A DNA stretch of 64,000 bases from Narcine bancroftii (taxonomy: Eukaryota). Both the position numbers and the translations under genes were made by a program. Positions 1 to 59,836 of the stretch are shown piece after piece (the stretch's first letter is position 1; every line of letters begins with the position of its first letter). The stretch is from positions 77,624,001 through 77,688,000 of the forward strand of contig NC_091474.1 of NCBI RefSeq assembly GCF_036971445.1. The letters are read 5' to 3'. Below the pieces are notes generated by a model, which had not been told where the DNA came from, did not search any database, and worked only from the letters and a program-made list of their open reading frames with translations.

Positions 1-964
1 GCTGCAGTGGTACATGTGATTTATTCAGGAAAAAAAGCTTGTTCAATTGGGAGAGTTTTAATTTTAAAAATGCACCATTATAATGTATTTACTAGAACCT
101 ATCTTCAAAATAGAAATTGTGGTGCTTATATTCTGTAAGTTTAAAAATAAACACATAATAAAAGCAAACAGATTGCAGCAGGATTTAGTCATGAAGTCCC
201 TTTGCCTGCTCTTCAATGGAAAGGATCAGGGCTAGTCTTTTACCTCAACGCAGCTTCCACGCACATCACCCTTGACTCCCCTAATATCCCAAAAGCTACG
301 TCTTGAAAATATTAAGAATCGGAGCCTCTGCAGATCTCTTGGATAGAATTTTGGAAAGGTTAATTTTATCTTGTTATTTTTGATTAGGCTGCGTTATATT
401 TTGAGAACGTGTGAGAGAGAGTGCAAATGCTAGAACCTGCAGCTAAACACAATCTGTAGGAGGAACACAGCAGATCGAGAAAATGAATGATCAATGTTTC
501 TGTCTTGAACCCTTCATCAAGATCAACTGCTCAACTTGCTGATTTCCTTCAACCTATTCTGTTTAACACCATATTTTTAAATCTGACCTCTTACTCAAGT
601 AATACAGCCATGGGAAAAAACAGTCACATCTGTGCTGACAAATCCCATAAGAATGTTCTAAGTTTCAGTAAGATCATCCCTCAGTCTTCTCAACACTAGA
701 GACCTGGTCTATTTAATTCTCCATATTGAGTCATCTCCATTTCTAGCAATCTTTGTTTCACTCCTTCTGACTTCATGTACTGTATATCGCTGCTTGGATA
801 GAGAGACCAAACCAGTTTTCCTAAACAAGATCATTATGCAAACCTATTGCAAAAAGTAAATGGACTCCAATGCTTTTTTCTCTTGTAGGTTGTCATTCAA
901 TGTTTTCTTGCATAGCATAGTAAAGCAGGTTAAGTTAATTGAAGGAATTAAGTGTTTCCATTAC

Positions 965-1156
965 CCAGTTAACTTTCTTTTCTCTTTGCTTCATCAGATG
1001 TTCCTGCAAATGTTCTCCGATCCCACCACAGGCGCCAAACCTTTCTACGATAACTTTGGTTACTTTGTACTGGTCCTCAGGGACCAGGTGTTTTACACAC
1101 TTTAGGTAGGTGTCCAGTGTCTCCTGTAGAAGAGGGACAGGACACTTGGGCAACAC
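965..1156 (-). CDS. CHAT: Choline acetyltransferase coding exon (VLPKCPVPLLQETLDTY...QREKKVNW), 192 bp, phase 0/0; gene continues beyond the left edge
   Basis: Choline/carnitine acyltransferase N-terminal motif LPx(L/C)PVP..L..TL..Y. AG acceptor at 1158-1157 and GT donor at 964-963. Lies downstream of VAChT as in the cholinergic gene locus. Confidence 0.93.
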
Positions 1157-2102
1157 CTACAGATTACAGAAAACAAAATGGATGTCAACCATTAAGTAGG
1201 AACCTGGGTGAACGGTGAAAACAATTAAATTGTACAGTATAGAACTCATTGGCTGGCAGGTTCTTCGTGGCAACACAGACAATCTATCTCTTCATTGCAA
1301 AATTTGTTTTGCATTTTAATAAATGTTCAGCATGTATTATTCATGGGACGTTGATAAGGCGTTATCTGTTTGTGAAAGGTATCTTCCAAATCTGAAACAA
1401 CATTGCTTGTACTATTTGAATGCAGGTCGTATGAGTAAATGATTCAGAAGTATTTATCACTCATTCTTGGTTAGTAATGCTATGAGGGGTTGTTGAAAAG
1501 CAATGACCCTGCTGTATTGGACAATAGTTAGTTAAACTAACCAAGTCAGAGAGAGATACAGCATGCAGACAGGCCCTTGGACCCACTGGATCTATCCCAG
1601 TCATAATCCCATGTTACTCTCTCAGATTATCACTCATCCACACACTTGGGACGATTTGCAATGGTAATTTCATCTGCCAGCCAGCACGATTGGAACCCAG
1701 ACTATCCAGAGGGAATCTATACATTCAGGGAGAATGTGCAAACTCCTCAGATGTGCAAGCTCAAGGTCGGGATAGAATCAGCGACTCCGTGCTACTGTGC
1801 GGTACTCACTAAATGATCAGTTTAAACGTGTGTGGGGGGGGGGGGTTGGGGGTGGGTGACATTCCTTAAACCAACTATATACCCGTTGCACTGAATAGGC
1901 CAGCAATGAGATTGCTCTCTCTCCAACCCTACCTGAGGGCATTAAATTGATTTGGACATGATTTTATTCGTCACCACACGGCGCTCAGGTAGCATTTGAC
2001 TGTCAAATTCCAGTGACAGAGAAATATTTCTACACATCAAGATTAGAACTGTTACTTGCATTCCTGCCTTGGAACAAACACTGTGCATAAAAGTTGCCAT
2101 AC

Positions 2103-2165
2103 ATAGCTGTTCCTGCGAGCTCTGGGTCGGACCGAATCCTGATTGGATTTATGCGGAACACTCAT
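2103..2165 (-). CDS. CHAT: Probable ChAT initiator coding segment (MSVPHKSNQDSVRPRARRNSY) within exon 2103-2223
   Basis: Polypyrimidine acceptor ttctctctttaatccAG at 2225-2224, accATG at 2165, and phase-0 donor TAT|GTATGG at 2102 that joins in frame to VLPKCPVP. The 21-aa length resembles known ChAT N-termini. Confidence 0.7.
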
Positions 2166-2779
2166 GGTTTCGTCAAGACCGCACGTACTCTCTGGAAGAA
2201 TGATGGGCAGATGGAAATAACGCCTGGATTAAAGAGAGAATGCAAGGAGGTACAATTCGCCCCTTCCAACCAACGCACGTCTCCATCACAATTCTCTACC
2301 TGTTATCCGCGGCGTTGCATTCTGTAACATTGCTCCAACACCCCAATCTCCCTTTCTTCCAGAAGGTCTGCATTGAAGCCGACCTTGACGCTAAACTCAC
2401 CTCCCCCCCCCCCCGGCTCCAAGTCCTTTCCTCAAAACTAGCATATAAAAAAAAATCGAAAGCATTTGAGAACACTCGTGGAAATAAACGAGGAGATCAC
2501 AGAAGAAGAGTTTCTGGGGGAAAGAGCCGGAGAATCAACTTCCAAGCATTGTCCTTGGGCGCAACACAGAGCCAAGGCGCCAGGTTCAGCCAAACCTGCC
2601 CACTTCCCATCCAATATTCTGCAATTCTACCAATTAAAGGCAAACGATGAGATGCTGGAGTGAGGAAGCATCTCTGGGTAGAGATAATCGGTGCTACTAA
2701 AAGTCATAAAAAGGTGGAACTGGCGGCCACATCCCGTTTTCGAAGTGTTAACAAATAGCGGATCAATATTTGCACTTAC

Positions 2780-2838
2780 CAATCTTCAGGATTCCACAGG
2801 ACACGAAAGGGAAGCCTGCTTTACTGGAGAACCCATGA
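2780..2838 (-). other. Candidate 59-nt ChAT 5' cassette exon
   Basis: Acceptor ctcatttcAG (2840-2839) and consensus donor TG|GTAAGT (2779-2774). Confidence 0.45.
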
Positions 2839-3116
2839 CTGAAATGAGATACCGGGCAACAATGGTCAACTCTCTCCGTCCGCTGTCACCGCCAGTTCTA
2901 TCGTGTTACCGATGGAGCTCGATTATACTCTTGCTCGGAATGCCAGAACCCTCCCCCTTTCCCTATTCGCCCAGCCTCACAACCGCGCACGGCCAGACGT
3001 CGACGACATCCACTCACTTTGAGCACGGAGGTTAGATATGAGCTCTGGGTTGGGAGGTGCAGGGGAGTGGGTGGCGGCGGCGGGGCTGGAAGGGGTGGGG
3101 GGGGGTAACAGGTTAC

Positions 3117-3493
3117 TTTGGCATGGCGCATTTTCCATCCTCGGCAGGTCATTATTCAGCAAGAAATGTTCCTCAACTAACGTGTTCAGACTTGGCGTCG
3201 GTGACTCCTTCCCTCTCTCAGCAGAAGGTGCCCCCTGCCTCCGATGCACACCAGTGGTAGAAGTGAAGGAGTTCATCTGAGAATTTGGGCTGAGGCGCTT
3301 CCCATCACACCCCACCAGCCCCGGGACTGCTGCATTCCAACCCGTTCCGACTGATGCGGCCGTGAATGAGCATCGCCGAGCTGTTCCAGGTTCCGAATGA
3401 AACCCAACGCTGACCAATTCAGCCGAGAAGGCTCGTCCGTCAGTGGACGCCGTTCAAACAATACTCATCCACCCTCTTCTTCAGGGAAACAAC
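3117..3493 (-). other. Candidate ChAT 5' exon (M/N-type analogue) in a CpG-rich region
   Basis: Acceptor ccctgtttgccAG|G at 3495-3494, donor AAA|GTAACC at 3116, and gccATG at 3124. Confidence 0.4.
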
Positions 3494-4902
3494 CTGGCAA
3501 ACAGGGCATTTCTCGATTAAGTGCAACCGAAACTTTTTTTCGTTTATTGCAAAATACTTTCCATTAATTGTAGTTAGAACTCTGGAAGGAGCATCGCTCC
3601 CAAATAGCAGTCTCATTATTTTAACAAGCCATTTGGCGGCGACATCCGGATGTCATTTCGGATTGAAACTCGATTTTAGGACTTGTAATGAGATCTATTT
3701 CCGAGTCTGACGCGGTTTGCCGATCATCTCCCAGACGCCGGGGGCTCGGCACCGCGCCGCTCCCGGGCTTCCCTGAGGATCCTGGCCGGGAGGAACGTTT
3801 GCTTTCATCGGGGAATCGGAGCGGTTCGAGTCGGAGGAAACTCGACCCCCGGCTCACACCTGCAACCCGAGTCCGAAACTTTTATTTTCACGTTGGAATG
3901 AAACCGGAGGCGTGGAGATGGGAGCCGATAAATGTCCGAAGCAAATCAGAAACCGTGACATGAAAAGTTTATGTTGCTGTGTTTTCAAGACAATTGTAAT
4001 TCTCAATATAAGACCACAACAGTGGAAACGGGGGGGGGGGGGGGGGGTGTCCTGGTTTTACAAGCACTCGTTTCCAGACTTTTTCCTCCCGTCGCTGTTT
4101 TAATTTATCTTTCAAATTCCCCTTTGAAAGCTCTCATCGAATAAATTTCCAATCGACCTACTTCGGCATCACCCTGAGTTTTATTATGCCAACTCCATCC
4201 GTCTTGTTATTGAGATGAATGGAAAATGTAAGCGAGAACATTTTGGGGGTGGGTTTGCATTTTATTAAAGATTAAGAAGCGAGAGCGTTTATATTAGAGC
4301 GGATTTGTTGGGTCAAACAGGTTTCATGGGGGCAAGTGTGTGTATTCAAATGTTACATTATCTTTATGTGATCAGATGTAATCCAGCTCTCCCCTCGAGT
4401 AAATGTGTCCACAATATTTTCCGAGTATTCATCAGAAAAGTTTATTGGTGTGGGTAAGATTTCAAAACCGTGTGCACGGATAGATAACGTGAAAGCCCGA
4501 CGATCTGAAAGCAACTTCGTTGCGCCGTTCTTGCACATGAAGCCGCTGCTTTGAAATGAAACCAATTTATTGAAACTCAAGTCATCATCTCTTGATCCAA
4601 CTTTAATCTGAAACCAGGTTATAATGTAGCAGCACATACAGGTCGAAATAGCCCGCGACAGAGATCCATTCGCAGAGAAAAATACACCGTCGTTTCTTTT
4701 ACAATTCGATTCCAAGACGCAATGTAAGGAGCATACATATTTATCTACAATATTTTTATTCCCATCATATCCCTGAAAATTTCGTACATTGAGCTCTTGT
4801 CATCAAGGTGTGCAACCTGGAACTCACACAAACAAATTCAATTAGTGGAAAAACTGCACTCGACATTATTTAAATAATGAAATGTAAAACACGAAAGTCT
4901 GC

Positions 4903-5014
4903 AAACCCCTGTTTGCATTATTTAAATCATGAAAAATTATTTAAACCCCTGTTTGCATTATTTAAATCATGAAAAATTATTTAAACCCCTGTTTGCATTA
5001 TTTAAATCATGAAA
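4903..5014. repeat. 40-bp tandem repeat, about 2.8 copies (aaacccctgtttgcattatttaaatcatgaaaaattattt)
   Basis: Units start at 4903, 4943 and 4983, at the edge of a dispersed repeat. Confidence 0.9.
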
Positions 5015-5018
5015 TGTA

Positions 5019-5218
5019 AAAGTCTGCAAACCCCTGTTTGAAGTAAAAAGACGATGCTGGAGAAACTCAATAGATCAAACAGTGGGCTTTATATTGTAAA
5101 GATCCATAACCAACCTTTCGGGCTTGAGCTCTTCACCAAGGGATGAGCCATAATGTTTGACCTTGGCTATATAAAGGGCACTGTTTGGCCACCTGAGTTA
5201 ATCCAGCATTGTGTTTTT
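5019..5218 (-). mobile_element. Penelope-type terminal repeat / palindromic dispersed repeat with a degenerate hammerhead-like core
   Basis: Arms gatgctggagaaactca / tgagttaatccagca, and minus-strand ttggtgaagagctcaagcccgaaa. The family recurs many times in the window. Confidence 0.6.
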
Positions 5219-5248
5219 ATTATTTAAATAATCTCGGGATAAATGTGA

Positions 5249-5254
5249 TTTATT
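5249..5254 (-). terminator. First candidate AATAAA polyadenylation signal of SLC18A3
   Basis: TTTATT on the plus strand about 270 nt downstream of the VAChT stop. Further hexamers at about 5216, 4755, 4567 and 4441. Confidence 0.45.
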
Positions 5255-5525
5255 GTGGAAAAAGACGAATCCTGATTGAGCACACTCTCCCCACCTTTGT
5301 CAAAGTCGCCATTCCGGTAAGACCCACGAAATTAGCGTTTACGTAAATTATACAGAAGTATGGCACGGCAAATATGACCCCCCCCCCAAAAAAAAAAACC
5401 CGGATTATATTAGACATCTAGTACATCACAGAGTTAAATTGTATTGCATTCATGTAGATCCTGGGAAGGTTGGAGTGTTTCGGAGCTAATTGTAATCATT
5501 ACTGGACGAATCGTCTTCAGACAGT

Positions 5526-7040
5526 CTATTCACTGTACCCCTCCTGGTCGGGGAGCACGGAGTGGTTACCTGGCCAGCTACCCTGAGGATCCTTAGCCGT
5601 CTTGCGTTCTTCCATGATAATGGTGTCATACAATCCCTTTGGCCCCTCCTCCAGTAGGATATTTCTCTCAGAGAGCGAGGGTTTCATTTGACACACTTTC
5701 CTGAGGAACAGCAGGGCTGGGGCATACAGGATGTTGACTAACCCCATGCCGAGGTTGAGCTGCACAAAACCCAAGTCGTGGACAATTTGCCCAGCCACAA
5801 TCGGACCCAAGGCATAGGCCACAGAGTAGGAGATATCTGCTATGGCGTACACACTCCCGTACACGGACACGTAACGAATATCGACAAGGAAGGCGAGGGT
5901 GGGCAAGAGGGCCGTGTCCACCAAGGCGATCCCAAAACATAGGGCGCACAGGGGGATGATGAGTTCTTCGAAATTCCTACAGGCGGGGACTGTGCACGAA
6001 CTGGCCCCGATGATAACCAAGCCCACGGCTCCGTAGAGCCATTGGTAACTGGGATATTTGGCGGCGAGCTTGACAGTGACATATACCCCTAGGACGTGCG
6101 GAAAGAATGCCGGTAACCACGTTAGACCCATTTGCCATTCGCTCGCATTCATTGTCTTTTTCATCCAGTTTGATATGGTGGGTTCGAGGAAGGCGAGGGG
6201 GATGTTGCAAGTGGTGAGAGCACCGGCCACCACAGCAATGTAAGGGTCGATCATAAGTTTGTAGATGGGGGTGCCTTGAGGCATGTTTTCACGTGTTCTG
6301 CTTGCAATTGGCGTCACGACCATGAGCAACAAAATACCGTCCAGCAGGCAGACGAAGGATAACACTAAGAAGGGGACCCACTTCCCCGCGAACTCGTACA
6401 ACACGCCGCCGAAGGGAGGCGCCACCAGGCTGCCGAAGGAGATGAACGCCAAGGCGATGCCCAAGGCTCGGCTCCTCTCCGACTCCTCCGTGTACTTGTC
6501 GGCGATCATGGCGATCCCCGACGTGTCCGCGAACGCTGAGCCCAGTCCCTGCAGGCTTCTCGCGGCGAACAGCATGGCATAGCTTTCCCCGAAGGCGAAG
6601 GTGATGGTGGAGAAGAACATAATGGCGAGGCCGATCAGCAGCGGAATGTCGTAGCCCACTCGGTCAATGAAGGTCCCAGTCAATGGGTTGGAAAGCAACT
6701 GCAGGATGGCCTTGGACGCAAACAGCACCCCGATCTGGATGTCTTCGTTCGCATTGGGGTTCCTCTCCAACACCGCTGTCTGGGTAGAGTTGAGTAGGGA
6801 GCCATTGGTTCCGTTGGAAGGCGTTGTGATGTACACCAGTTTGTAAGTTCTTATCGTTTCAAGGTAGTTTGGGATAATGGGCACGATCACCATGTAGAGC
6901 ATGTTGTCCAGTAACATGGCTATGCACACGATGACCAGCAGAATTTGGCGTTTCCGCAGCGGTTCATTCATGGCCCCGCTGATCCGTTGACATCTCTCTC
7001 CAATCGCGCCGGCAAATTTCCCCAGGGCTGCCTTCGCCAT
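5526..7040 (-). CDS. SLC18A3: Vesicular acetylcholine transporter (VAChT), intronless, 504 aa
   Basis: MFS 12-TM pattern, [15 protein letters not shown]1, glycosylated lumenal loop (NGT/NGS/NST), [13 protein letters not shown], and C-terminal SERNILL dileucine motif. The first in-frame ATG is at 7040; the ORF-track start at 7238 is a GTG. Confidence 0.98.
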
Positions 7041-7131
7041 CGTCGCCCCACCACTTTCCTCCCGCAGCGGCCGCGCCGACTTCCCTCCGGATCCCTCGGG
7101 CGGCGACTGGACCCCCCCCCCCTCCCTGTGA

Positions 7132-7182
7132 TTACCTGGACACAAAGCCCCGGGTGCGCCCCGGCGTCGCGGGCACGGGCAT
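7132..7182 (-). other. uORF in the VAChT leader ([16 protein letters not shown]) whose stop lies in a 5' splice site CAG|GTAATC
   Basis: actATGc at 7182; TAA at 7134-7132 overlaps the donor GT at 7135-7134. Confidence 0.55.
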
Positions 7183-7638
7183 AGTCGCCGGGCGGCCAAG
7201 TCCGAGGGGAGCGAGGGAGGCGGAGAAGGGGAATGCACTCCTCCAACTCTTCAATCTTGCCCGGACGGCGGATGAACGGATTGTTGCGACGAGGCAGTGG
7301 TCACACCGCCGGATTGCGGGAGTCGCCACCTCCTCCACCTGTAACCCACCCGGCTCCTCCTTCCTCCGCGGAAGCCATTCACGCTTCCTTGCTCCTTGCT
7401 TTTTTTTTCTTGACGTTTATGACGGGACTTTGTTCCGCTTTCATCTGGTTGCACTGGAACACGCCCCTGATGCGAATTCGCCACGTGACTGGATCTTCTC
7501 CAATTCCAGACCGTCCACACTCTGATCCCGGGATGTGGATAGTTGGGAGAACTGCGACTGCTGTGGTCCCGAGCACAGAGGCACTGGGCGGACCTGGTGG
7601 CAGAAATGAGCCGGGACCGCTCCCTTCATGGACACCAA

Positions 7639-7829
7639 GTAAAAACACGCTGGAGAAACTCAGTTGGTCAAACCGTGTATTTCATGGAGCAAAGCTAACG
7701 GTACAGAACCAACATTAGGGCTCAAGCCCGAAAAGTCCGCTCTGTATCGTTATAAAGTCCACGGTTTGACCTGCTGAGTTTCTCCAGCGTTGTGTTTACT
7801 GCAATCACGGTGTCTGCAGACTTTCGTGC
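7639..7829 (+). mobile_element. Penelope-type repeat, inverted relative to the 5019-5218 copy
   Basis: agggctcaagcccgaaa core and tgacctgctgagtttctccagc...tctgcagactttcgtg tail. Confidence 0.6.
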
Positions 7830-9685
7830 ATTATCGAGACATATGGATCAACTGACCATTTCTCCCCCGGGAGGTTGCGTAACCAGCGCCTCATTGGCTG
7901 CGTTCAGTCCCGAGCTGGTCATCCGGCGAGCCCCACAGACCTGCCCGCCTCCTCTCCCTAGTTTGATGCTCAGCGCTTGACTGGACAATGTACGTTGGCC
8001 AGAAACTATTCGGAATCCACGAATAGCTTGGAACGGAACAGATCGATTTGCTTTTGGAGTTTGGGGAATCCCTCTGACCAGTTTGTCTTTGCTCAGGGTC
8101 TGACTTCTCGTGGGTACACTTGTTACGGCGTGGCAAGACTCTTTGAAACAGCACTTGCTTTTTCTCCACAGCAGATATTTCAGTGCGATTGAAGTCAGTC
8201 TGTCCGCAGTTTCCTTCCAGTGCTTGCGACGTGCAGAAGGACGCTGCTGGTCCACCGCAGCGGCCAACACCCCCGCAGTATTCTGGAGATCGGCGGTAAC
8301 TCTCGATGACCGCCAGCTCTCAGCACTTGTTGCAAACAAAGAATTGTTGGACGAACTCGGTGGGTCGGCTAGAAATGGTCCGTCATCGTTTCAGGTCGAG
8401 AGCCCGAGACCTTGACAGACCATTTCTCCCCTTGCGCGCTGGGGCCCGGCCAACATTTCGTTTTTTACTCAAATTCCAAAATCTGCATTCTTTGTGATGC
8501 TGCCTTTGGACTTGTTGGTGGCCCAGGGCGATGGGGTCAGGAGGATTTGGATGCCGGGGGGAGATTGGATAGGCTGGGCTTTGATTCCCTGGAGGCTAAG
8601 GGGTGAGGCGAATGGTCAATTGCACAGATAGGGGAGATGGTGAGAGCCCCTTTCCCATCATAAAGGACCAAAAATTGGAGAGCATTTTTAAGGACTGTGT
8701 GAGCGAGTGGGGGGGGGGGCAGGCAAGGGGGATCTGAAGGGTACCTTTTATTCGGCTGGCAGAGAAGATGGTGGTATCAGATACAAACTGACGGGAAACA
8801 CGTCCAGACAGAAGAGTCCGGTCCTGATGCAGGCAAATTGGATGTGTAGATGTGCCGAGGGTCCGTTTCTGCGCTATCGAACGAAGTGGCTCTGAGGATG
8901 TGTTCCAAAATTCACAGAAACGCAGACCATTCAGCCCATCGAGACAATGCATGCAACATATTAATTCCGTGCCCTCGTTATTTTTTTCCCTGTGACATTT
9001 AATTGTCGCCAGATTATTCCACAGACCTACACGTTAGGGGTCATTTACATTGGCTGATCAACTCAGCGAACAGCATGGCTTGGGAGGAGCCCATGCGGTC
9101 ACAGAAATCTCCACACACACACACACACAAATTCCAGAGACCAAGATCGAATCCGGGTCTCTGGTAATGCGAAGTGATAGCAGCATTCGCTGCTCTTCGG
9201 CTCTTGTCCGGATGGGTTGCATCAATATTGTTGCGTTCGGATTCTGTCTTGGCCTCTATGTTGGAGTAGAACCACGATGTGGCAACAACAGCTTCTCGTT
9301 TTATATTCTAGTTGGCAGCGCTCGCTGTATCTGTCTGGGACGACAGGCGCTGGCCATAGTTTTCATGTATCGAAGGCCAACGAGGGGCAGTAAACTGGGG
9401 AAATCAACGCTATGGTCATCTCTCATCACCACAGAGCAAACGTTTGGCCAATGGACTGTACAGCATGGTCATGAGCATGCAGGGGGGCAGGACAGATGTT
9501 AGTAAGAGCGGTGCAGATGTTAGAAACGGGGTAAGGGGCATCTCATCCCCAACCACCCCAGAAACTGAAATAATTGACATTTGGCTGTAATGCAAGTCGA
9601 TGAACTGGGTGCAAGACGTGCGGTGCACTGGGTGGGGTCGCTCCACACTGAGCAGGGTGTGCAAAGTCCAGTCCGCTCAATTTGA

Positions 9686-9842
9686 TCCAACTTTGGATCT
9701 CGGGTCCCGCTTTGCAGGGACTACCATGTACCCGTTTCCCGGGACTGATTTTATACCCAACCACCGTATTGTAAAAGTTACCCCATGGACCCAGTCCTGA
9801 GCAGATGTTAATGAAAGGTTGAAATGGCCGGGGTCCAAAGGG
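9686..9842. mobile_element. Degenerate piggyBac-type MITE
   Basis: Right end gtccaaagGG followed by TTAA; internal similarity to the 30574 and 60948 copies. Confidence 0.55.
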
Positions 9843-10439
9843 TTAAACGCATGGCCACTTCATTCTCGTTCTCTCTGTTGTCTGCAGCACTTGACACCGA
9901 ATGTCTTTGGTGATATCTTTCCGATTAGGAAAATGGCTTGAGAGCAGGCATTCTGTGTGGAAGGATGAGCTAGAGGCTTGCACACGGTTTGTTCGTTGGA
10001 GCAGCGCAGTACTGAGGGAGTGCCGTCGCCCTACCGTTCCAACAGATACAACAAGATCGAGGAGCAAGAACAAAAACTGGTCGCAGTCCCCTTGACCCCA
10101 ACGAACACTCCCACGATGTGGTTCTCAGCTCTCTTTTTTTTTTAAAGAGTGAGGGTTAGAATTTCTGTGTGCCAATTGGGGGGGGCACGCGTGGGCACCA
10201 ACCGCTTAAATAAAAAGATCTTCCAAAAATAAAACCTATTGACCACGTCGGTCTTCATTGCACTGAAAATACAATGGTCCCGTGATGGAAAGGGTGCAAA
10301 TATTGATATCTGTGGGGTTCGCACCATATTCTGTAAACATAGGTATAAATCTACACCTTGTTTTGCTTTAACAAGAGCACCTTTAGAGGGCAAGTCAATG
10401 ATAAACAACCGATGACTTTCTAATCTGTGAACGCGACCG

Positions 10440-10730
10440 CCTCACTTTCATCCCACACAGGTCTCAAAGCCCTCTTTCTTTCTTGACAAGAGACCAGGCA
10501 CCCTCCAACACCATCCTCCTCTGCCTGGCAGAATTGTTCTCACTCTCCGTTAACTCATCTCACTTTCCTAAGGTTAGAACGCCTGCCGACATTTTTTCCG
10601 TATCTTGAAGGGCTCAAGCCCGAAACGCTGGTTCTGTATCTTTACCTTTAGTATCCAAAGGACACTGTTTGACCAGCTGGGGTTCTCCAGCATCGTGTTT
10701 TTCCGGAGTCTGGAGACTTTCGTGTTTTAC
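10440..10730 (+). mobile_element. Penelope-like fragment (RT remnant plus terminal repeat)
   Basis: Degenerate IPH..GLKAL.FFL / L.LAEL.L-like coding remnant, followed by gaagggctcaagcccgaaac. Confidence 0.5.
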
Positions 10731-12819
10731 ATCCGCCTGTATCATGAGGGGGGGGGGGGGGGGGTCTGGGTGTCACTTCGGTGGAGGGCACTTTGCAAGG
10801 CTGCTCTGTGATGGGATCAATGTGACTTTTGTATGCTTTGATTTTCAACCGATTCAATACAAATGATATTCTGCCGGATTGCTATAAATTTTAATCAACG
10901 ATAAGGCCAACGTAACTTTTCAAATGGACTTTATTGACGTGCACAGCTTGCCAGAAGTAAAGTAACTGGAGCTTTTAAATTTCTCTGAGGCCATCACATT
11001 ATTCCTCCCACTCAGTAAGGTCAGGTACATGTGCATAATTAATAGAATTTTCCCCAGTGGTCATTACATTGACCCATTCATCTGCAAAATGAAACAAAAA
11101 GGGCTTGGCTTTGTGGAAAGCAAATATGACTCATTAATTGGTTGAAATGTATTTCCATTCTTCAAGTCATTGATAAAAGGTGATTAGATTATGACTAAGG
11201 GTTTATATCATTATGTTTTTGAATCTATAGGTCATTCTGCGGTTAAATTTGACCAAAATATGAGGCACCACTTGGCAAAATGTTGAGTTGCACAAATAGA
11301 TAACGTGCTTGACCTTGAGTTTTACTTTCACAAGTATTATATTCTCTCATGAACACAAGCAAGGTGAATGGGGTGGAACTAAAACTGAGGGAAAAAATCT
11401 GCACTGTCTCTTTTAAAATGAGTTTCAGTGATTAGTGAATTAGAAATTTTTACCATGATTTAATTAAATTTGATTACTGAATAAATATTCCAGCCATTAC
11501 TTACTCTTTTATCAACCCTTTCATCAGGCAACAGAAATTTTTGCTGTGGTAAGAATTGGCATAATCCTCTCCTATTATAACCTCTGCAACAGCCCATATA
11601 TCTCAAGTGAGTTCTCCCTCAATTGTAGCTAATCCTATTTGATCTCTTTTAGAAATATTAATGGTGTCGATGCTATGGTGTTGGTGCTGCAAAAGGAGGG
11701 TTTTAAAGTGCTCCTTCCATCTGATAGCCTAATGGCAAGGTATCATACCAGTTTAGCCGCCCATCCAGGGACATGTGAAGCCATGGATTGCAGACGGTGG
11801 ATGGTTTTTCAAGCAGATTCTACAAATTGGAATTGATGGTTGTAAAACTAAAAACGCTGGGCAGATTAATCTGCTGGATGGGTTACCCATCCACTGCAAC
11901 TGAAGAAGGCAACAGGAAACCACTTCAGTATTTTTCCCCTTGTATAATCATTAACTTCACATTGACTACGGTCTCAGCTCAAAGATGGGGCCTTCACCGA
12001 AGGAGAACAAGGGAGGCAACAACTAGAATTTTGAGGGTTAGAGATCATGAAGGATATGATCGCCCATGTTGAACGGCAAGGCACCTGAATGAATGCCTCT
12101 ACGATGTTACCCTGTTTGTTTTCTACAACCTCCAGTCATTGGTTTACACAGACACCTATTTCCTTTGGACATAGTTCCTCTATGTTGGAAATTCAGTTTA
12201 CAAACCATATTTAAGGGTTAGAGCAAAATTTACCAAAGTAATACTTTGACTCAAAGGATTAAATGACACCAGTATTTTTTCTAAGAATTTAGAAGATTAA
12301 CAAAAGATATTCTGGAGAAAGTAAGCCAAGAAAAGTAACTGATTGGCACCTGTAAAAATCTGGGCTCATAAATGAAAGTCAGCATAAAATTGTTCAAAAC
12401 AAATGAGGTTTCCACTGAATTTCTTTCAAGATCTTATAACTGTAGAAATCCTCGCCTCACGCCTTGCCTTCCCTTGGGGCTACAACTCAAGCTGATTTTT
12501 CCACTCCCAAACTGCCCATGTCTGTTTTCCTGATTTTCCCTAGAGCTCCACACCTTGGGTTTCAGTCCTTCGTCCTGACCACTCAGTTTAATTCCATGCT
12601 GTCAGCTAATGTCTGAGGCCACACATTACTGTCTTACAAAAGCCGCTGGAAGGACTGGAAAAGGAATTGAAGTTAATTTGTGGGAGTAGAATGCATGGCT
12701 GAGAATGAATTAATATTTTGCATCAGCATTCCTGCAATAAAACAAAGCACATGAATCAAGAGAAAAGATATAAAATAGGTAAAGAATATGTAGCTAAAGG
12801 GTTATCCGAATAGAAAGAA

Positions 12820-13250
12820 TATAACGACATTGCATCCCTGTTTAAAATCAGCAAGGATAATAATCTGACTGAGTGCAGTCCAGCCAGTCTAATGTCAGAG
12901 GCAAGAAACCTTGTGGACAATAACATGGAGAAAAATTAATTGGCATTTGAAGAAGTATAGTTTTATAACTAAAAGCTAGCATTGATTTGCTAAAAGGCAA
13001 ATTGCATTAGACTAATTTGATCAAGTCCTTCAAGGACTACTGGAGAGGGTTGCTAAGGGTAGTGTGATTGATGAGTCTTTCTGGATTTTAAAATAATGAT
13101 TTGACAGAGCACCACGCAATGGGCTTGTTTGCAAAGTTTAAATTTATGAGATTAAAGGGACAATGGCTCTATTGATATGAAACTGGCCAAGACAAAAAGC
13201 AGAGAGTCAGGTTTGTTTTCTTACTGGAGTGAAAGATTGAGTGGTGAATA
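12820..13250 (+). mobile_element. Old CR1 LINE RT fragment
   Basis: Degenerate equivalents of PLFK...YRP.SL, QHGF..G.SC.TNL and DF.KAFD motifs. Confidence 0.55.
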
Positions 13251-16200
13251 AAAATACAAAACAGCAGAGAGATTGGAAATAAAGCCAAACATACTGGAGA
13301 TATACCAATAGCATCCAAGGAAAGAGAAACAGGAAATGTTTCAAGTCAAAGGCCTTGACATTTTAACCATGGAAAGTGTAAAATGATGCATTTACACTAC
13401 CCTGGAGTTTCAGGACCTGAGACATTCTGTCTCCTGTATTAAAATGGACACAGTTCTTATTTTCCTCATGATGTAATCTCAAGAAGGCATTTATTGTTAT
13501 GCAGTGGTATAGTATATAAAACATTCACTTAAGAAGATTGGATAGGTGATTTCAATTCTAGATGGCCATCGATAAGCAGTCAAAAGTAGCAGGAGGCATG
13601 TCTTTCAGTTCCAAAATAAGATGTACCCAAGTAGAATAAATTTGCCAATACATGTGGTCAACCTGCTTCTGTATTTTGTCATGTTTCTTGTGACATTTGT
13701 GTGTCCTGTCCTATGAAGTAAGCCTTTTTTTTTGACAATGGATGTGCCAATCGAAGTACAGGCACACTCTTTATCAATTAACACTTCTAGTACAGGTTTG
13801 AAGATTGGTTTTTCCTTTAATTTGCAACTTTCCATCACACAGCCAAAATCTGGTAGACTAAAGCCGATGGGGAATTTATCCTTCCATCAATAATTGGGTA
13901 CAGCCTTATTGTAACTGCATTCTTCCATCAATGAGTTGCAGAGAGTTAAGCATTATTTCTCATCATTTCAAAGACTGAATCACAAGTTACCCATTACTAT
14001 ACATCCTCCACAGTTGCCTTTACCTGAGTATTCAGACCAAACAATGTGCATGACATTTACACTTTTGCATTTGTATTGGTCCTTTTTGACTTCACCATTG
14101 CTGAGATTCTGGATGAATAATTTTGTTTTTAACCCAAATAAAATATTATTTATACTTCAGAAAATTCTGGTAATTCAAGCAGAATCCATGAAAAAGAAAA
14201 AAAAAAAATATTACAGTAGAATTTCCAACAATTTATGTTTTTCCTCAGATTTCAAGAATCTGCACCATTTTGTTTTGTCACGACTCTCTTCGTGGTCACA
14301 TGATTAAATCATTTTATGTATGTATTCAAATTATGGAAGTTCAATTCATATGTGATAAAACAATGGAATATAGAGAGATGGGGCAGATTCAGTGTAATGT
14401 TCAATTCTACATTTCATAGCATCACCTATGACTTTCAGTGGATGTAATATTACTTCTTCAACTTTATCACCTTTCAGTTGGAAATATCCCTATTCCCTTC
14501 CCAATTATCTCTTCTATTCTCTTTTGCTTCTCTTTCTCCTATTGTTAGGAGCATCGAGCAATGCTCAGGATGACTTAGTCTGCTTTATGGCAGGCGAAAG
14601 TGTTACATTTTTAATCTGTTATTACATGACACTAAAAGGAACCTTGAACCTATTCTCTAATCTGCTGATGCTGCCTTTCCTTCCTTCTATTTATACAAGT
14701 CCACCTGCAACCAGAGATAAATGGCCTACAATGGCCTTTTCTCTCAATCTACCAGTAACATTCTCTGTCCTTCTCTGATTTTCTCTGTTGATATGGGGGC
14801 ACATATGCACCACATTCCACAAACTGTTAATCCCCTTGTGTCAGATGGTTCACATTTATTTCCTGTCAGATGTGGGGAAGTGTTAACTCAGTGACCAAAC
14901 AGCCATCTGAACACGTGCCGCTGATTCCATATTCTTTGATAATCACAGCTTTTGCAACACGGGTGCAGGAACACTACACCCTATCTACCATCGCAAAATA
15001 CTCATTTCCATTTCACCCACAACCTACTTTCAACCACTTTGCTTTTGGAACCTAATTATTTTTTAGAGTTTATTTGACTGACCTCCAAACTTTAAGATTC
15101 ATTAAATCAGCTCATTCAAACTTTTGCTGCCCATACCAAATACATCTGACCTTCCTCCTCTTCCTGATCTGTGCATTTCTCTATGAATCAGCCACCTTTT
15201 CATATTTCTTCTATATCTCTCACAGTTCTCCTTCCTTAAAAACCTACTGTTCCATCTCTGGGCAGTGGAATATCTCATATTCTTGGTTTGCCCTGGAATC
15301 TTCTCTCTAGGTAACTCTTAAATCTCTCATCCTTGAATCAATCTTTGATCAAACTCATTCTGAAGCGATGGTTCATACATATCTTCACCAATAGCCCCAT
15401 TTAAATGTGATGTAAATATAAATGTATTTTGTTGCAAGTGGTTTCTGGTGTTCAAACCCTCGTTACAGGTTAATTGACAAACAACATAACCACAAGTTAT
15501 CAACCATCTTGCCAAAAAGTTCAAGAAGACAAATTATTCAATGCTAAATAAATGAGACACTAACCTGCCTCTTTGTTGAATAGTTTCCATAGTTTTCTGG
15601 CCAGGATCTTTTCAAAAACTTGTAAAGCCACCAATCCACTTTACGATTTTGTACCCTCATGAATTGGAATGTTGCATACATAATGGTGAATCTGTGAGAA
15701 TGTGAAAAATATTTACATGTGGTAAGAGCATAATGGGTCCCTTTGATCAAAATAATAATGGTTATTATTTCAAAAACATGGCATCATGGCTGTTACGGAC
15801 AGCAGCAATAGAAATCCACCAAGACCATGGTATCTTCAAAACAATGATTTTTATTAATAACTAATGCATAATAACACTCCTTACTTAACTCTAACTTAAC
15901 CCCACTATGTGTGTATGTGTGGGACAAAACCAAAACCATTATAGTTTAGGCACAATTGTTAAAAAGAATATATTTTTGAAGTTCAGTCAGCTTTTTGTTG
16001 AAATTCAGATCTTTAAATTGTTGCTAAAAATAATTATGGAGTTGGTGTGAGGCTTCAGACTACTCAAAACTCAGGAAATTCTTGTAGAGTTGTTGTCAGA
16101 GAAATATTTCTTCACATGAATGATTTCCCCTTCTTGCACTGCCAGAGGCAAGGGTTACACAAAGTGCCATATAGAAATGGACACAATGAATCTGTCCTCT

Positions 16201-17427
16201 TTTCAGAGATAGCTGAAGTGGTGTTTCCTTGCCACTGTATTTCTCATGTGAAGAGAATACAATCAGAGATCCTCTCCTGAGTGCGTCTCATTTCTGACCT
16301 CAGATTTGTTTTCGGTGCAATATTAAAACACAGATTTTCAAAAGGATTTAATCACATGACCATGACATCACTCCTGATTTCTGTTTGAAGTTTCTCTCTT
16401 CCAAAAGTTTTACGACCAAACTCTTCTGGATTGTCTGCCGAAGCAACAAACAAAACTTAAATGCTTCTGAGTTTTCATTCTAACAACATAGGTGGGCAAA
16501 CAGTCTTCTTTTGAACCAGATGTTCTCCTTGAGCACACACCATTGTTCCAGCAAGTGAATGAACCATTCAATTCGAATTTCAATGAAGTTTTTGTGGTTG
16601 TTTACCCAGCTTCAACCAACAATGGTTTAACAGACATTTCCACTTTCAAAATGGTTTCCATGTCCATCCTTAAAACCTTACTAATAAATATTTATAATAA
16701 CTAAAGATTAAATTATTAAAACGTAGTTTCCCATCTGTACTCCATCTACATAAAATATATGTAAACTCGGTCGGTGAAGGGATCTATATGTATGGAAGGG
16801 GAGAGGGAGGGACTGGTTTGCTTATGTTTTTGTTCTGTTTGTGAGGGAAAAGTTTAATATATTGTACATTTAAAATGTTATAATGCATATTTTTTTAAAC
16901 ACAATTAAACACAAGGCACAGACTTGCATTAAACCTAAGGACACGTGCCTACACGCCAAGAATTAATGCACTTTCACGGATGCTTTTGTGTTTATTGGCA
17001 CACTTTTCCAGAAATATTTCGTCCAATTCGCTACTGTGGTGACGGGGAGACCCCACCCAGGACAAAAAAACATGATGAGAGGTTTGTAGAATGCCCATTA
17101 AAATGTTACTTGTCAGGTCCAAAGTTAAGGGAACGAGTTGACATCAGCAATATGAAACGGGGATGGCAAAAGACGCCGATTTAATGAATTGACAATCAGC
17201 AAATGAGCTAAACCAGGGAACTAGAAGCGATTTCAAAATCTGTCGGGTTATTAAATTCTTGATGAATATTGCGGGGCAGTTTGGATCACGGAAACCCACA
17301 ACACAGCTTTGAAAATGAGAATCTCAACAATTCTTCTCTGCACATTAACGCTGTAGCTTCTTTTTAGTGGATGAATTATGTTCTACTTGTGCTTCCGCAG
17401 AACCACCTCAGAATCACCGAAACTTAC

Positions 17428-17519
17428 GACGTAAAGGTCGGAAGTATAACCCCCCCACCGCTCTTCAGATTGAGTTTAGAGACCCCCCCCCCTCCTTCAG
17501 CATGAGTTTAGACTTTATA
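17428..17519 (-). promoter_or_regulatory. Candidate cholinergic-locus distal (R-type) promoter and short non-coding first exon
   Basis: TATAAA at 17519-17514 and GTAAGT donor at 17427-17422, in a CpG-rich segment (about 17400-18300) with an RE1 about 1.3 kb upstream. Confidence 0.5.
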
Positions 17520-18798
17520 GCTCACTCCCGCTCCCCGTGGAGTCTCTCTTCCCCATCAGCTCTCGTACCGCGCTCCTGAATGGGACAACCGCAAGGCGCA
17601 CCTTTGCTGTCACAGATCAATCGGTGTCCCATTTACAAGAGGTGATCTCGGCCGAGTGAAAAGGACAGCACAATTAAAATAATTAACCCGCATCGATGAG
17701 AGGGATGTGATTTGCCACTTCGTCTTTGTCGCATCGATCTCGCCTCCGCTGGGCTCTTTCGAAAACACGTCTCCTGCTCGGCTTTCTCACGACCCTTGCT
17801 CAGCGCTCGACGCTTGTTGACCTTCGGACCATCAACAGTGAGCGAGATCTCAAAACAAAGACAACACCAAACGGTGTTCACACCCTCCCGGCGAACGATG
17901 ATGAAACGCGCGGCCCACAAGCATGTACACTTGCCTTTGTGCCTGCCGCCGCCTCTCCCGCGAACCACAATAAACAGAATCAAGCAGAAGGGATCAACGG
18001 GATTCATTCCCCACGTGTTGAGTCAGAAATCCTGCAGGCATTGCTAATTTTACCCATTCCACTAAAAAACAATGGATAGCACGCGGGAGCCTAATTTTAA
18101 AGACGAGAACCGTTTAAATTAGAATCGTTAACTACATCTGGAGATGTTGAAAGTTATCAATCGGTAGCTGAGGTCGGGGTTCCTTCGTTTACGCGAAACG
18201 TCGGCAAATGACGTGGAAATCTTAACTGGGCGGCTTTGACATGATCTCTCCAGGTCTTCATGCATTCACCCACTTCCTCGATTCTACTTGTCTCCTGTCC
18301 TCCGTTCCATTTCTTCCGTTTTCCTTGATCTAGATTCTCTGATGCATGGTCAATGAACTATGCCAAAGGTTCTCAACTTCCTTTCCCCATTCACATGCCA
18401 CTTTAAGTCATCCCTTACTCACCACAGAGCACCCATGGCATCCTGTGGTGAGAGATGACTTGAGGTGATGTGTGGAGAAAAAGAAAGGTTGAGGACCACA
18501 TAGCACGCAGTCTTGGAGTATTGGAAGGGGTCTCTGGCAACGGCTATTTGTGGGGCACACCATTAAAATGTTTTAATGGGAACTCAGAAGTTGACCCTGA
18601 AGTCAACGCGAATTGTTCTCTTTGGATTTAAATTAAGCTTTTTGCTTGAAATTCTTTCGATGAAACTATTTCTACATAAAAGCTATTTTAATAACTATGG
18701 ATTTCTTGGCTCTGTTTTATTAGTGTCCAATTCAAATGAATTCCTGGGAAGGAAAGATTTGTAGCATTGATTTGAAACATATTTATTACCTGGTTCTA

Positions 18799-18819
18799 TT
18801 CAGGACCACGGAGAGCGCT
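18799..18819 (+). promoter_or_regulatory. RE1/NRSE (REST-binding site)
   Basis: TTCAGGACCACGGAGAGCGCT matches consensus TTCAGCACCACGGACAGCGCC at 18/21 positions. The mammalian cholinergic locus has an upstream NRSE. Confidence 0.75.
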
Positions 18820-18994
18820 TGACAGCTCAGCGAGACTGGAGCGCCACTGCGCGGTGAACCGGGATAAATGCAACTTCATCGATTGGGTTCAATACACCTC
18901 CAGCTCCCTCCACCGGTTGATATTTGCAATTGTTTTTGAAATAATGATTCAATTAAATGTTATCCATTTGTTTTCAGAATTATCTTCTCAATTC

Positions 18995-19890
18995 CGCATA
19001 GTTTGCTGATGACACAAAGGGAGGAGGCCTCGTGGGCAGTGACGAAACTTTTCAAAGCTTGCAGAGGGATCTGGACCTACTCGGAGAATGAGCCAGAAAA
19101 TGGATGTTGGGGTTCATTGCAGACAAGTGGGAGGTGTTGCAGTTTGGATGAGAAAATCAACAAAGGAAGTAACCTGTAAATTGTAGGGCACTGAGGAGTG
19201 CGGAGGAACAAAGAGACCTGGGGATACAGGTACATTGTTCCCTGAAAGTGGCGTCACAGGTGGACGAGGTTGTAAAGAAAACTTTTGGCATCATGGCCTT
19301 TATAAATCAAAGTATTGAATATAGGAGTTGGGATGTTATGATAAAGTTGTGTCAGACATTGATGAGACCAAATTTGAAGTCCTGCATGCAATTTCAGTCT
19401 CCGAACTACAGGAAAGATATCAATAAGATTGAAAGCGTTCAGAGAAGATTTACAAGGATGATGGCGGGACTTGAGGAACTGAGTTACAGGGAAAGATTAG
19501 AATTTTATTCCCTGGATCTTCAGAGAATTAGAGGGGATTTGATGAAGGTATACAAAAATTATGATGGTTATAAGATAGACAAAATGCAAGCAGACTTTTT
19601 CCACTGAGGTTGGGTGAGATAAGAACATGAGTTAAAAGTGAAAGGCAAAATGTTTAAAGGGAACATTACAGGGAACTTCTTCACACAGAAAGTAGTGAGA
19701 GTGGAAACAAGTTGCCAGATGAAGTGATGAATACGGGCTTGATTTCAACATTGAGCTACAATTTGGATAGGTACGTATGGTAGGTGGGAGAGGCATGGAT
19801 GCCTATGGTCAGTGCAGATCAGTAGGTCTGGGCAGAGTAATTATTTTTTACAGACCAGTTGGGCTGAAGGGCCAGTTTCTTTGCTGTAAC
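18995..19890 (+). mobile_element. CR1 LINE 3' fragment
   Basis: FADDTK, LMRPNL..C.QF.SP.YRKDI..IESVQRRFTRM, GLEELSYRERL, RIRGDL motifs, plus a CR1-type 3' UTR. Confidence 0.88.
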
Positions 19891-19984
19891 GTTCAATGGT
19901 TCTATCACCTTAGTGGCTTGGTATCGGAATCCATATGGGAAACTCTCTGATTTTATTTTGTAAACCAACCAATTTATAAAATTT

Positions 19985-20225
19985 GTTTTAAATCTTACAT
20001 TTGGACATACAGCACGGTAACAAACCCTTCCAGTTCTTGAGCCTGCGCTGCCCAATTACACTCAATTGACCTACAATCCCCGTACATTTTGAAAGGAGGG
20101 TGTTAACTGGAGCACCCAGAGGAAACCCATGCAGTCACGGGGAGAACGTGCAAACTCCTTCCAGAAAGTGTCGGATTTGAACCTGGGCCGCTGATGCTGT
20201 AACAGTGTTGTGCTAACTGTGTCAC
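19985..20225 (-). mobile_element. tRNA-derived SINE. Other copies at about 1555-1800, 9000-9200, 20480-20675, 24570-24770, 25430-25645, 29925-30117, 36950-37170, 39575-39785, 43555-43772, 55525-55750 and 57455-57675
   Basis: B-box-like ggttcaaatcc, shared body ggagtttg.acgttctccccgtg and tail gttaccgtgctgtatgtc. Confidence 0.75.
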
Positions 20226-31857: not shown

Positions 31858-34800
31858 CAGGATAACCGTCACTGCAAAATCACTTGATGCTGCGAACAAG
31901 ATCGCAATCCAAATGAAAACGGGAGTTGTGGTTGCCCGGCAAGGAATATGGGGCAACTCAGAGAGGGGAGGGGATCTTTTGGGGTTAAGGTATTAGAGGA
32001 TGTGGGAACTGCGGGGGTACTTTATGTCTTAAATGTGTTGTCATACATTAAGTGTAATAAGAGAAAACTAAGAGATGAAAATGGGGAAAAGGGGGATGGA
32101 GGTGGCGAAGAGGTGGAAAAGAGGTGTATGTAAGATATAAGATGGCCATGTTGAACTATATGACTATAAACCAAATTAAAAGGAAGAGGCTACCAAATTT
32201 ATTGAAGAAGGAAAAAATAGATATAGCTGTGGTGCGCTGTTAGCTAGAATCAGACACACACAAGGTAAGACTGTACAACAGGCTTTAATCCACAAAGACT
32301 TCCACAGACCCAGGCTGGCTGTGGCTGGCCGGCGGATGCTTACATCCCAGAGGGTGATTGACACCCAACCGGGTGGGGCTTGATCCATTCTGGCCAACTG
32401 ATTGACAGCCGGCCAGGTGTTGTCGTGTCCCCTTACACTCCTGCAGGTACACAGGTTGTTCCCTGCAGTAGGCCAGTGGTGTACCACAACAATAGCATTT
32501 GTGCAGGAAATGCATTTAACTGAAAAGGAACATAACAAACTAAAGAGAGACTGGGTAGGACACGTAATGGCAGCATCCTATAATTAAAAAGCTAGAGATG
32601 TAGCCATACTAGTCAACAAAAATGTACCAATCAAAATAGAGGAGGAAATAATAGATCCGGCAGGGAGGTATGCAATGATAAAGTGTCAGGTATACTCAGA
32701 ATTTTGGAATTTGCTCAATATATACGCACCTAACGAGGAGGATCAAACGTTTATGCAGGATATTTTTTGGAAGATTGCAGACACACAAGGAAATATATTG
32801 ATAGGAGGGGATTTTAACCTTAATTTGGACCCAATGTTGGATAAAACTGGAAAAAAGACAAGCAAAAAGAATAAAATAGCCAAATATATGGTTAAATCAA
32901 TGCAGGAAATGAAACTTATGGATATATGGAGGAGGCAACACCCAAGAGAGAAGGAATTTTCATATTATTCGAGTAGGCACAAAATTTACCTAAGGATTGA
33001 TATGTTTTTGTTGACTAGACTACTATCAGATCATTCACCCCTATTATTAGTAATAGAACTGGAGGACATCCCACCAAGAACATATAGATGGAGGTTAAAC
33101 TCTGTGCTACTTAAAAGACAGGAATTTAGGGAGTTTATTGAATGCCAAATTAAAACATATTTTGAAATAAACACAGGATCAGTGAAAGACAAATTTATAT
33201 TATGGGACACAATGAAAGCCTTCATTAGAGGGCAGATAATAATTTATGTGACTAAGATGAAAAGGGATTACAATCACGAAATAGAGCAGTTGGAAAGGGA
33301 GATAGTAAGTACAGAAAAGGAATTAGTAAAAAAGGATGATATAATGAAAAGGAGAGAATTGGCGGACAAAAAAATTAAATACGAAACATTACAAATGTAC
33401 AAGGTGGAGAAGAATATAATGAAAACAAAGCAAAAGTATTACGAATTGGGAAAAAAACACATAAAATATTGGCCTGGCAACTTAAAACAGAACAAGCTAA
33501 AAGAACAATACTGGCATCAAGGAAAAAAGGACAAACAAATTACATATAATCCAACAGAGATTAATGAAAACTTCAAAGAATTTTATGAACAATTGTATCA
33601 AACTGAGAATGAGGGGAAAGATGATAAAATAGAGGAATTTTTAGCTAAAACTGAACTACCAAAATTGCAAGAAGAGGAACAAAACAAACTAATAAAACCA
33701 TTTGAAATAGAGGAAGTACAGGATATATTAAAAAAGCTGCCGAACAATAAAACGTCTGGAGAGGATGGATTTCCAATCGAATTTTATAAAACATTTAAAG
33801 AGTTATTAATTCTTCCTCTCCTGGAAGTAATGAACCAGATAGAAGAAACACAAAACTTGCTAGATTCATGTAAGACAGCAATAATTACAGTAATACCAAA
33901 GACAGGGAAGGACCTATTAACACCAGCATCATATTGACCAATAACTCTACTTAACTCAGACTATAAGATAATAGCAAAATTATTAGCAAGCAGATTGGCC
34001 GATTGTGTACCTAAAATAGTAAAACTAGATCAAACTGGATTTATTAAGAAAAGACGAACAGCGGACAATGTCTGCAAGCTTATTAATCTAATCCACGTAG
34101 TTCAAGGAAATAAGAAACCAACAGTGGCTGTTGCTCTAGACGCAGAAAAATCCTTTGACAGAGTAGAGTGGAACTACTTATTTAAAGTATAACAGAAGTT
34201 CAATCGACCAGAAAAATATATAAATTGGATTAAAGCATTGTATAATGGACCATTGACGAAGGTAGCAGTAAATGGATATGTATCGAGTCACTTTAAATTA
34301 AGTAGGTCAACTAGACAGGGATGTCCACTATCCCCATCATTGTTCACCTTAGCAATAGAACCTTTGGCAGAACTGATAAGAATGGAAATTAAAATAAAAG
34401 GGATAAAAATAATCGAGGAGGAGTATAAAATCAGTTTATTTGCAGATGACATCATAGTATACCTAACCGAACCAGAGATATCAATAAAAGAATTACATAA
34501 GAAATTGAAGATCAATGCAAATAAAAGTGAAGTGATGCCAATAAGTAATGCAGACTATACAGAATTTAAAAAAAAATCACCTTTTAAATGGCAAACACAA
34601 GCAATCCGATACCTAGGGATCAGGTTAGATAATAACTTAAGCCACTCGAACAAACTAAATTATCAGCCTCTAATAAAGAAATTGCAGGAAGACTTAGAAC
34701 ATTGGAAAGAATTACCGCTAATGTTGATAGGGAGGGTAAACTGCATTAAAATGAACGTGTTCCCAAGGTTACAATACTTATTTCAAACATTACCAGTTCC

Positions 34801-53118: not shown

Positions 53119-53591
53119 GTCTGTGCTGTGTAACAATCCAAAAATGACTTTGATTCCGAGTTACATTCCTGCTGCCACTTTAAAATTGGTGATTGAGAAA
53201 ACATTAATTAGACGAGTTTCGGCACAAGCATTCTCTTCTGCAGTCCATCTGGAGTGTCTCAGGGTGTCCTTCAATCCCATCAGCAACTTCAGTGAGGAGA
53301 GTCTGCAAGGTCTGATTGGACTGAGAGAACTTCGCTTGAATGACAACGAACTCTCAACATTTCCCTGGCACGTCCTCTCCCACCTGCCACACCTCTGGCT
53401 GCTCGATTTACAGGGCAACATCCTTCTTTCGATACCAACCCAAGCAGCTGCTTATTGCAAAAACATCACCTACCTAGATCTATCAAATAACAGGCTGACA
53501 ACACTCTCATCCAGTGTGATCTCAACATGGTTGATGGTTCCAGGCGTGGCCAAAGTGATTTCACCCACTGGAAATTTAAAACTGATCATCG
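53119..53591 (+). CDS. LRIT1: LRIT1 exon 2 (leucine-rich repeats)
   Basis: LRELRLNDNEL, LLDLQGN and YLDLSNNRL repeats; canonical splice sites. Confidence 0.93.
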
Positions 53592-59712: not shown

Positions 59713-59836
59713 TGCAAATGCAATGAGAAACAAGAGTTGGGTATATTTCACTGCGTTCAGATCTTAATTAAATGATAGCACTTGGAACTTACACCGTAAC
59801 TATAATTGCATGTGATGCACCTGTTGTGTTTTTCAG

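Follow-up and report, generated by a model that had tools for sequence, protein, structure and literature searches.

Published descriptions of the cholinergic gene locus indicate that the rat uses a shared upstream promoter and an exon R, and that its VAChT mRNA results from stopping at its own polyadenylation site (PMC13163293). Exons R, N, M and S are described for rat, mouse and human, where a common promoter precedes R (PMC13163293; PMC3053374). R, N, M and S/H are the 5' variants of mammalian ChAT given by a 2026 review, and none is described there as starting in the VAChT leader (PMC13163293). A 5' exon common to the VAChT and ChAT messages has been reported for C. elegans unc-17/cha-1 (PMC3875643), the tick Ixodes (PMC7524744), the moth Bombyx (bioRxiv 2021.03.29.437568) and Ciona (PMC8719597). 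The setting of the ChAT:VAChT ratio from one locus has been described as poorly understood (PMC3053374, PMC3875643); the accessible part of PMC3967689 added nothing on the locus.

The DNA analysed here (the window, a stretch of 64 kb) carries the cholinergic gene locus of the electric ray Narcine bancroftii, as judged from the closest named proteins, VAChT and ChAT. Features of this locus lie on the minus strand. An intronless VAChT (SLC18A3) ORF of 504 aa (5526..7040) was aligned end to end with Torpedo VAChT as a single, vertebrate-type reading frame, with 91% identity over residues 1-110. It is nested in the 5' part of ChAT on the same strand, between ChAT exons at 17.7/15.6 kb and those beginning at 2223 and 1156. 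The N-terminus of Narcine VAChT (MAKAALGK) is four residues shorter than that of Torpedo (MAVGQAKAAMGK) and still shorter relative to sharks. Two AATAAA hexamers follow the VAChT stop (5254-5249 and 5221-5216) and an additional one lies further 3' (4446-4441); all three are candidate VAChT polyadenylation signals that could be used by the VAChT message.

Several other elements were observed in the window. Copies of a short high-copy repeat, with very high depth in the run contigs, were located at 5044-5219, 7647-7833 and about 10600-10710. An inverted repeat pair flanks VAChT (5047-5093 and 7751-7797, 83% complementary), and pairing would be possible only in transcripts starting upstream of about 7800; a splicing structure built from this pair was set aside, the repeats being copies of the high-copy repeat. 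The VAChT 3' region also contains an AT-rich unit of about 40 nt in three to four tandem copies (4890-5040). On the plus strand, 32588-35623 holds long ORF(s) with the look of a LINE endonuclease/reverse transcriptase, and 53054-60918 holds apparent leucine-rich-repeat/immunoglobulin gene exons, both labels being given from the appearance of the translation only.

The VAChT leader, for which a genome-wide comparison of 7030-7400 returned itself as the single match, contains an ATG at 7182-7180 (-) in the context GCGACT-ATG-C, with A at -3. On unspliced RNA this ATG would open a 16-aa upstream ORF (uORF; 7132..7182) ending in TAA at 7134-7132. The stop lies in a 5' splice-site motif, CAG/GTAATC (7130..7138; TCCAG/GTAATC, the slash marking the cut at 7136/7135), which leaves an ATG-to-donor segment of 47 nt in phase 2 (7136..7182); if the donor is used, these 47 nt would supply the coding sequence of a first exon common to both messages. 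All of these elements, together with the VAChT ATG at 7040, were read from the DNA as an earlier sequence-only reading had placed them, except that the spacing between the uORF stop and the VAChT ATG, given there as about 92 nt, is 91 nt. The stop falls within the donor because any phase-2 donor starting GTAA, GTAG or GTGA creates one; it therefore follows from the phase and is no separate evidence.

The donor is the sole strict [AC]AG/GT[AG]A motif from 8500 down to the VAChT ATG. Strict motifs occur at 0.33 per kb in the window and are present in 2-25% of leader shuffles, and motifs that match the consensus at 7 of 9 positions are found at roughly two per kb. Another strict donor motif, CAG/GTAACC, was seen at 5570 (-) within the VAChT C-terminal coding region; it lies on P-G-N codons in phase 1 of the VAChT frame, and its join to ChAT exon 2 is out of frame. 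The stretch of 96 nt ahead of the VAChT ATG is rich in G and lacks a pyrimidine tract, and no VAChT acceptor after the leader exon, as in Drosophila-type splicing, was found in the leader, across whose donor the Torpedo record described below is collinear. Upstream ATGs at 7378, 7444 and 7629 (-) in a CpG island open ORFs of 25 aa, 21 aa and one longer, which would be relevant only with a transcription start upstream of them. A bacterial promoter scan was discarded as not applicable to this DNA.

An upstream start was found in one of 34 other cartilaginous-fish VAChT records, Torpedo marmorata AAC59647.1 (vesamicol-binding protein, 568 aa), which reportedly derives from a 1994 electric-lobe cDNA. 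An out-of-frame ATG is invisible in protein records, and the other 33 are uninformative on its presence. AAC59647.1 begins MPVPAKRGAPGSPCPGN, and its MPVPA start corresponds to the orthologous ATG. A frameshift-aware fit of this protein to the window, made with best-case codons so that identities are upper bounds, placed its first 17 residues on 7182-7131 with 47 of 51 letters matching and one 1-nt gap at the 19th base. The fit extends beyond the donor with several indels (125/133 aligned letters overall), and the record is therefore unspliced at that position. A transcription start downstream of 7182, raised earlier as a challenge to the shared-exon idea, is argued against by this record, which contains the ATG and runs unspliced across the donor; ATG 7182 thus likely sits on the VAChT mRNA. 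The ATG is conserved between two electric-ray genera, as seen in this one relative. Torpedo C-P-G-N aligns on TGT CCA GGT AAT, which is the donor motif, and the motif is probably kept in Torpedo, as deduced from the codons (GGN AAY) and not from DNA. The leader is about equally conserved before and after the donor, and the kept ATG and donor therefore need no selection.

As recorded, the reading frame differs between the two rays. The ATG-to-donor distance in AAC59647.1 is 46 nt (phase 1) instead of 47; its ATG shares the VAChT frame, giving a 57-aa extension with no uORF stop. The uORF frame, stop and peptide are accordingly not conserved: the Torpedo frame shifts after six codons and runs into VAChT. 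The extension is absent from four other Torpedo VAChT records (511, 511, 511 and 515 aa, with Q91498.2, also of T. marmorata, at 511 aa). It is possible that the 1-nt gap is an old sequencing error, because it falls in a GC run next to a small GC stem, and gel compressions are common in GC-rich stems. When the conservation check that the sequence-only reading had proposed for other chondrichthyans was carried through, the ATG held (in T. marmorata), the donor probably held, and the phase did not (46 nt in Torpedo; phase 1 for skate exon 2).

The ChAT exon with the conserved start Met (exon 2, 2103..2223; ATG 2165-2163, MSVPHK) was recognised by homology and sequence. Its start is orthologous to MPVLNN of sharks, and the Met is kept across jawed vertebrates. 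The acceptor at 2223 is preceded by a pyrimidine tract ending TTTAATCCAG, and the exon-2 donor, TAT/GTATGG at 2103, was set by homology with shark and ray ChAT (...ARRNSY-VLPK). The next coding exon (exon 3, 965..1156; VLPKCPVP...VNW, 64 codons), found by protein match, agrees at 98% with ChAT of Narcine bancroftii XP_069741551.1. The distance from the acceptor at 2223 to the ChAT Met is 58 nt, which together with the 47 nt makes 35 codons. Along the path 7136>2223, 2103, 1156, all 120 codons tested are open and reach LPKCPVP with 35 added residues, which bears out the proposed phase-2 join into ChAT. The direct join was the only one of four tested that keeps the ChAT frame: that to 3493, offered earlier as an alternative acceptor, stops after 19 aa, that to 1156 also stops early, and inclusion of a motif-based candidate exon of 59 nt (2780..2838; TTTCAG/ ... 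TTG/GTAAGT) after 7136 stops the frame at 55 aa.

To determine how often such an arrangement arises by chance, 4000 dinucleotide shuffles each were made of the leader at 260, 560 and 960 nt. The combination of a strict donor and an open phase-2 ATG arose in 13, 187 and 318 of 4000 (0.3%, 4.7% and 8.0%); given a donor, an in-frame ATG was present in 14-31% of shuffles, and in 51% the frame was open through the 19 exon-2 codons. When the donor rule was relaxed to 7 of 9 consensus positions, 961 of 3000 shuffles of the 560-nt leader (32%) contained the in-frame arrangement. The arrangement, which was chosen post hoc, is modestly above chance under the strict rule only.

Comparison with relatives was made on 31 cartilaginous-fish ChAT records, which are mostly automated models. 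Twenty-two start at the conserved Met, five carry unrelated extensions, two skip the conserved-start exon and two start later; an MPVPA-type N-terminus was found in 0 of the 31. No Torpedo ChAT was present among the best 120 of 679 matches. The residues of the 35-aa extension are not conserved between species, and a HMMER search of 1.84 billion representatives with the 40-aa exon-2 peptide found one match, an unrelated repeat protein; for exon 3, the search among longer proteins gave 1 of 6 candidates. Two skate ChAT models continue through the intron end; they match the window in one frame as far as the acceptor and in a different frame beyond it, and the acceptor at 2223 is kept in two skates (LHFLFNAG versus LHSLFNPG). 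The acceptor-to-Met distance is 68 nt in skates, which needs phase 1, versus 58 nt in Narcine, which needs phase 2. The exon-2 phases of Pristis (tentatively 1) and Hemitrygon were dropped, the junctions not being placeable. In the Tetronarce californica electric-lobe transcriptome, the abstract, text passages and 12 of 19 supplements of the report (PMC5557070) contained no ChAT sequence and no MPVPA.

For the odd N-termini of four relatives (P0003, P0292, P0125 and P0135), nothing in 2224-20000 beat shuffled peptides. Hypanus sabinus VAChT isoform X1 (P0292) has a different first 7 residues, with no match in this window, hinting that an upstream exon may be joined into VAChT in this stingray. 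Two eel gene models (P0058 and P0066) are predicted VAChT-ChAT fusions (PF07690 + PF00755) and are probably gene-prediction artefacts of the nested layout.

The RefSeq model of Narcine ChAT, XP_069741551.1, has a different 5' end. The coding part of its first exon (17688..17734), in a CpG island at 17501-18000, is a model exon that would provide an alternative ChAT 5' end upstream of VAChT, and its second exon (15565..15691, donor CAG/GTTAGT) is joined directly to 1156. The joins use canonical sites, and the model bypasses the donor at 7136; it also omits the intact conserved-start exon 2223-2103, and its N-terminus resembles no relative. The 5' end of the model could represent a minor form or a choice made in modelling, and it is doubtful that the annotated N-terminus is the main ChAT form. 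Closer to exon 2, a stretch at 2916..3068 is conserved with Pristis and present in its ChAT model (tblastn E 4e-8, 53%). It lies inside a CpG-rich patch (2751-3500) and is a candidate ChAT-specific proximal promoter or 5' exon; donor motifs were found at 2780 and 2401, between VAChT and exon 2. The single proximal promoter of the sequence-only reading is therefore unlikely, given the conserved CpG-rich 3068-2916 and a gene model in which exon 3 is preceded by an exon ending at 17688 and another at 15691-15565.

Contigs of the same species from three runs of one study (X1-X3), presumed to be RNA, were compared with positions 1-12000. The three runs had no cover at 6401-7600 and X1 had none at 2001-2800, a blank that is uninformative either way. 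The joints 7136, 2223 and 1156 were absent among the 15 listed of 55, and those listed belong to a repeat family. One X1 contig (1317 nt) matched 965-1158 with no differences at record positions 416-609, the match ending at most 2 nt from the borders of exon 1156-965; RefSeq exons starting near 17980 would fit the remainder of this contig, by arithmetic alone.

Taken as a whole, we tentatively read the VAChT leader as a composite exon, in which splicing to ChAT would compete with VAChT polyadenylation and the ATG would be tolerated, although a cryptic donor is almost as likely. In the composite-exon reading, transcripts would start at a promoter somewhere upstream of 7182. Read-through of 7136 followed by polyadenylation after VAChT (5254, 5221 or 4446) would yield the VAChT message, on which the 16-aa uORF would be translated and VAChT reached by leaky scanning or by re-initiation 91 nt later. 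Splicing 7136>2223 would yield one of several ChAT messages, and ATG 7182, with its A at -3, would open ChAT with 35 extra residues. We infer the choice itself, for which splicing versus intronic polyadenylation is a better name than intron retention. Most likely the ATG is tolerated and not selected as a switch, because its frame is harmless for ChAT in Narcine and for VAChT in the Torpedo record, because the extension sequence is not conserved, and because the Narcine uORF is short and leaves 91 nt for re-initiation. If the donor is instead cryptic, which is a quite plausible reading, the ATG would affect VAChT translation only, through a uORF in Narcine and an in-frame extension in the Torpedo record, and ChAT would rely on 5' exons of its own (those at 17.7/15.6 kb and the proximal element near 3000) and start at the conserved Met, as in rodents. 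The RefSeq model takes such other exons, the interval from VAChT to exon 2 contains the conserved CpG-rich 2916-3068 and the donor motifs at 2780 and 2401, and the conserved Met starts 22 of the 31 ChAT records. Donor motifs with 7 of 9 matches are also frequent (about two per kb), the loose arrangement appears in a third of shuffles (32%), and another strict motif exists within the VAChT ORF at 5570. What a cryptic donor explains less well is that the strict whole arrangement is uncommon (0.3-8%, halved again when the exon-2 frame must be open) and that Torpedo matches the donor codons.

The sequence-only reading had gone further and proposed selected coupling, with one proximal promoter and one selected ATG that would give a uORF on VAChT RNA and extended ChAT when spliced; the 1-nt difference in Torpedo would then be an old sequencing error or be offset in Torpedo exon 2. 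We consider this unlikely, and beyond the layout we found nothing that speaks for translational coupling under selection. The A at -3 of ATG 7182 is in its favour, and the 1-nt gap lies in a GC run at the base of a GC stem of five pairs (7164-7150), but the leader region folds no better than shuffles (z 0.68). The Torpedo phase 1 equals the phase 1 of skate exon 2 (68 nt), and with 47+58 nt in Narcine the changes could be reciprocal, but this cross-match sets exon 1 of one species beside exon 2 of another and would arise by chance one time in nine, with no Torpedo ChAT among the matches inspected. The varying extension residues and the far-upstream 5' end of the gene model also weigh against selected coupling. 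Less probable still, and improbable on present evidence, is that electric rays use one start codon for both genes, with reciprocal frameshifts on the two sides of the intron (46+68 versus 47+58) that keep the ChAT frame. Unspliced RNA would then lead directly to VAChT (the 568 aa of Torpedo marmorata) or to a uORF (Narcine), and spliced RNA to extended ChAT; if true, the first exon shared by the two genes of a vertebrate cholinergic locus would be a coding one, and it would serve the neurons with the greatest known demand for acetylcholine.

The composite leader exon, if its donor is used, would be a compact switch, acting through splicing versus polyadenylation and through start-codon use, in a classic model of cholinergic biology, and it would correct the N-terminus of the Narcine ChAT gene model, which skips the conserved-start exon. 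If the donor is unused, the feature is an ordinary upstream ATG in a known locus. In the literature searched, in which most primary locus papers lie outside coverage, there was no report describing this donor and ATG in a vertebrate, or a shared exon with coding sequence in a vertebrate VAChT leader. A nested VAChT and 5' exons common to both messages are already established, and the leader feature is real, partly conserved, and placed in a known locus. The sequence-only reading knew of no such arrangement in vertebrates, but a shared upstream promoter and exon R are described for the rat (PMC13163293). The mammalian locus (rat, mouse and human CHAT/SLC18A3) is alike in having an intronless VAChT on the same strand in the 5' part of ChAT (PMC13163293, PMC3053374), and in having several ChAT 5' exons. 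It differs in that the rodent exon R carries no coding sequence and a single protein results from all the rodent ChAT variants, whereas in Narcine just 96 nt separate the candidate donor from the VAChT ATG downstream, and the leader contains an ATG in the ChAT frame. The shared exon of the worm, Ciona and the moth is described as non-coding, unlike the Narcine candidate, and VAChT in the invertebrate and tunicate loci is a separate exon reached by splicing, whereas in Narcine it would be expressed by read-through of the donor.

The human 82-kDa M-type ChAT has an upstream in-frame start in a 5' exon that extends the N-terminus, and is thus similar in its N-terminal lengthening, but the M-type exon lies downstream of VAChT and is not common to it. 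At the Drosophila Cha/VAChT locus, the ChAT start codon is reportedly a GTG in the shared first exon, and thus in the VAChT 5' UTR. Although VAChT is there spliced to its own acceptor, the leader is long and the animal is not a vertebrate, the Drosophila locus would share with the Narcine candidate one start with two fates.
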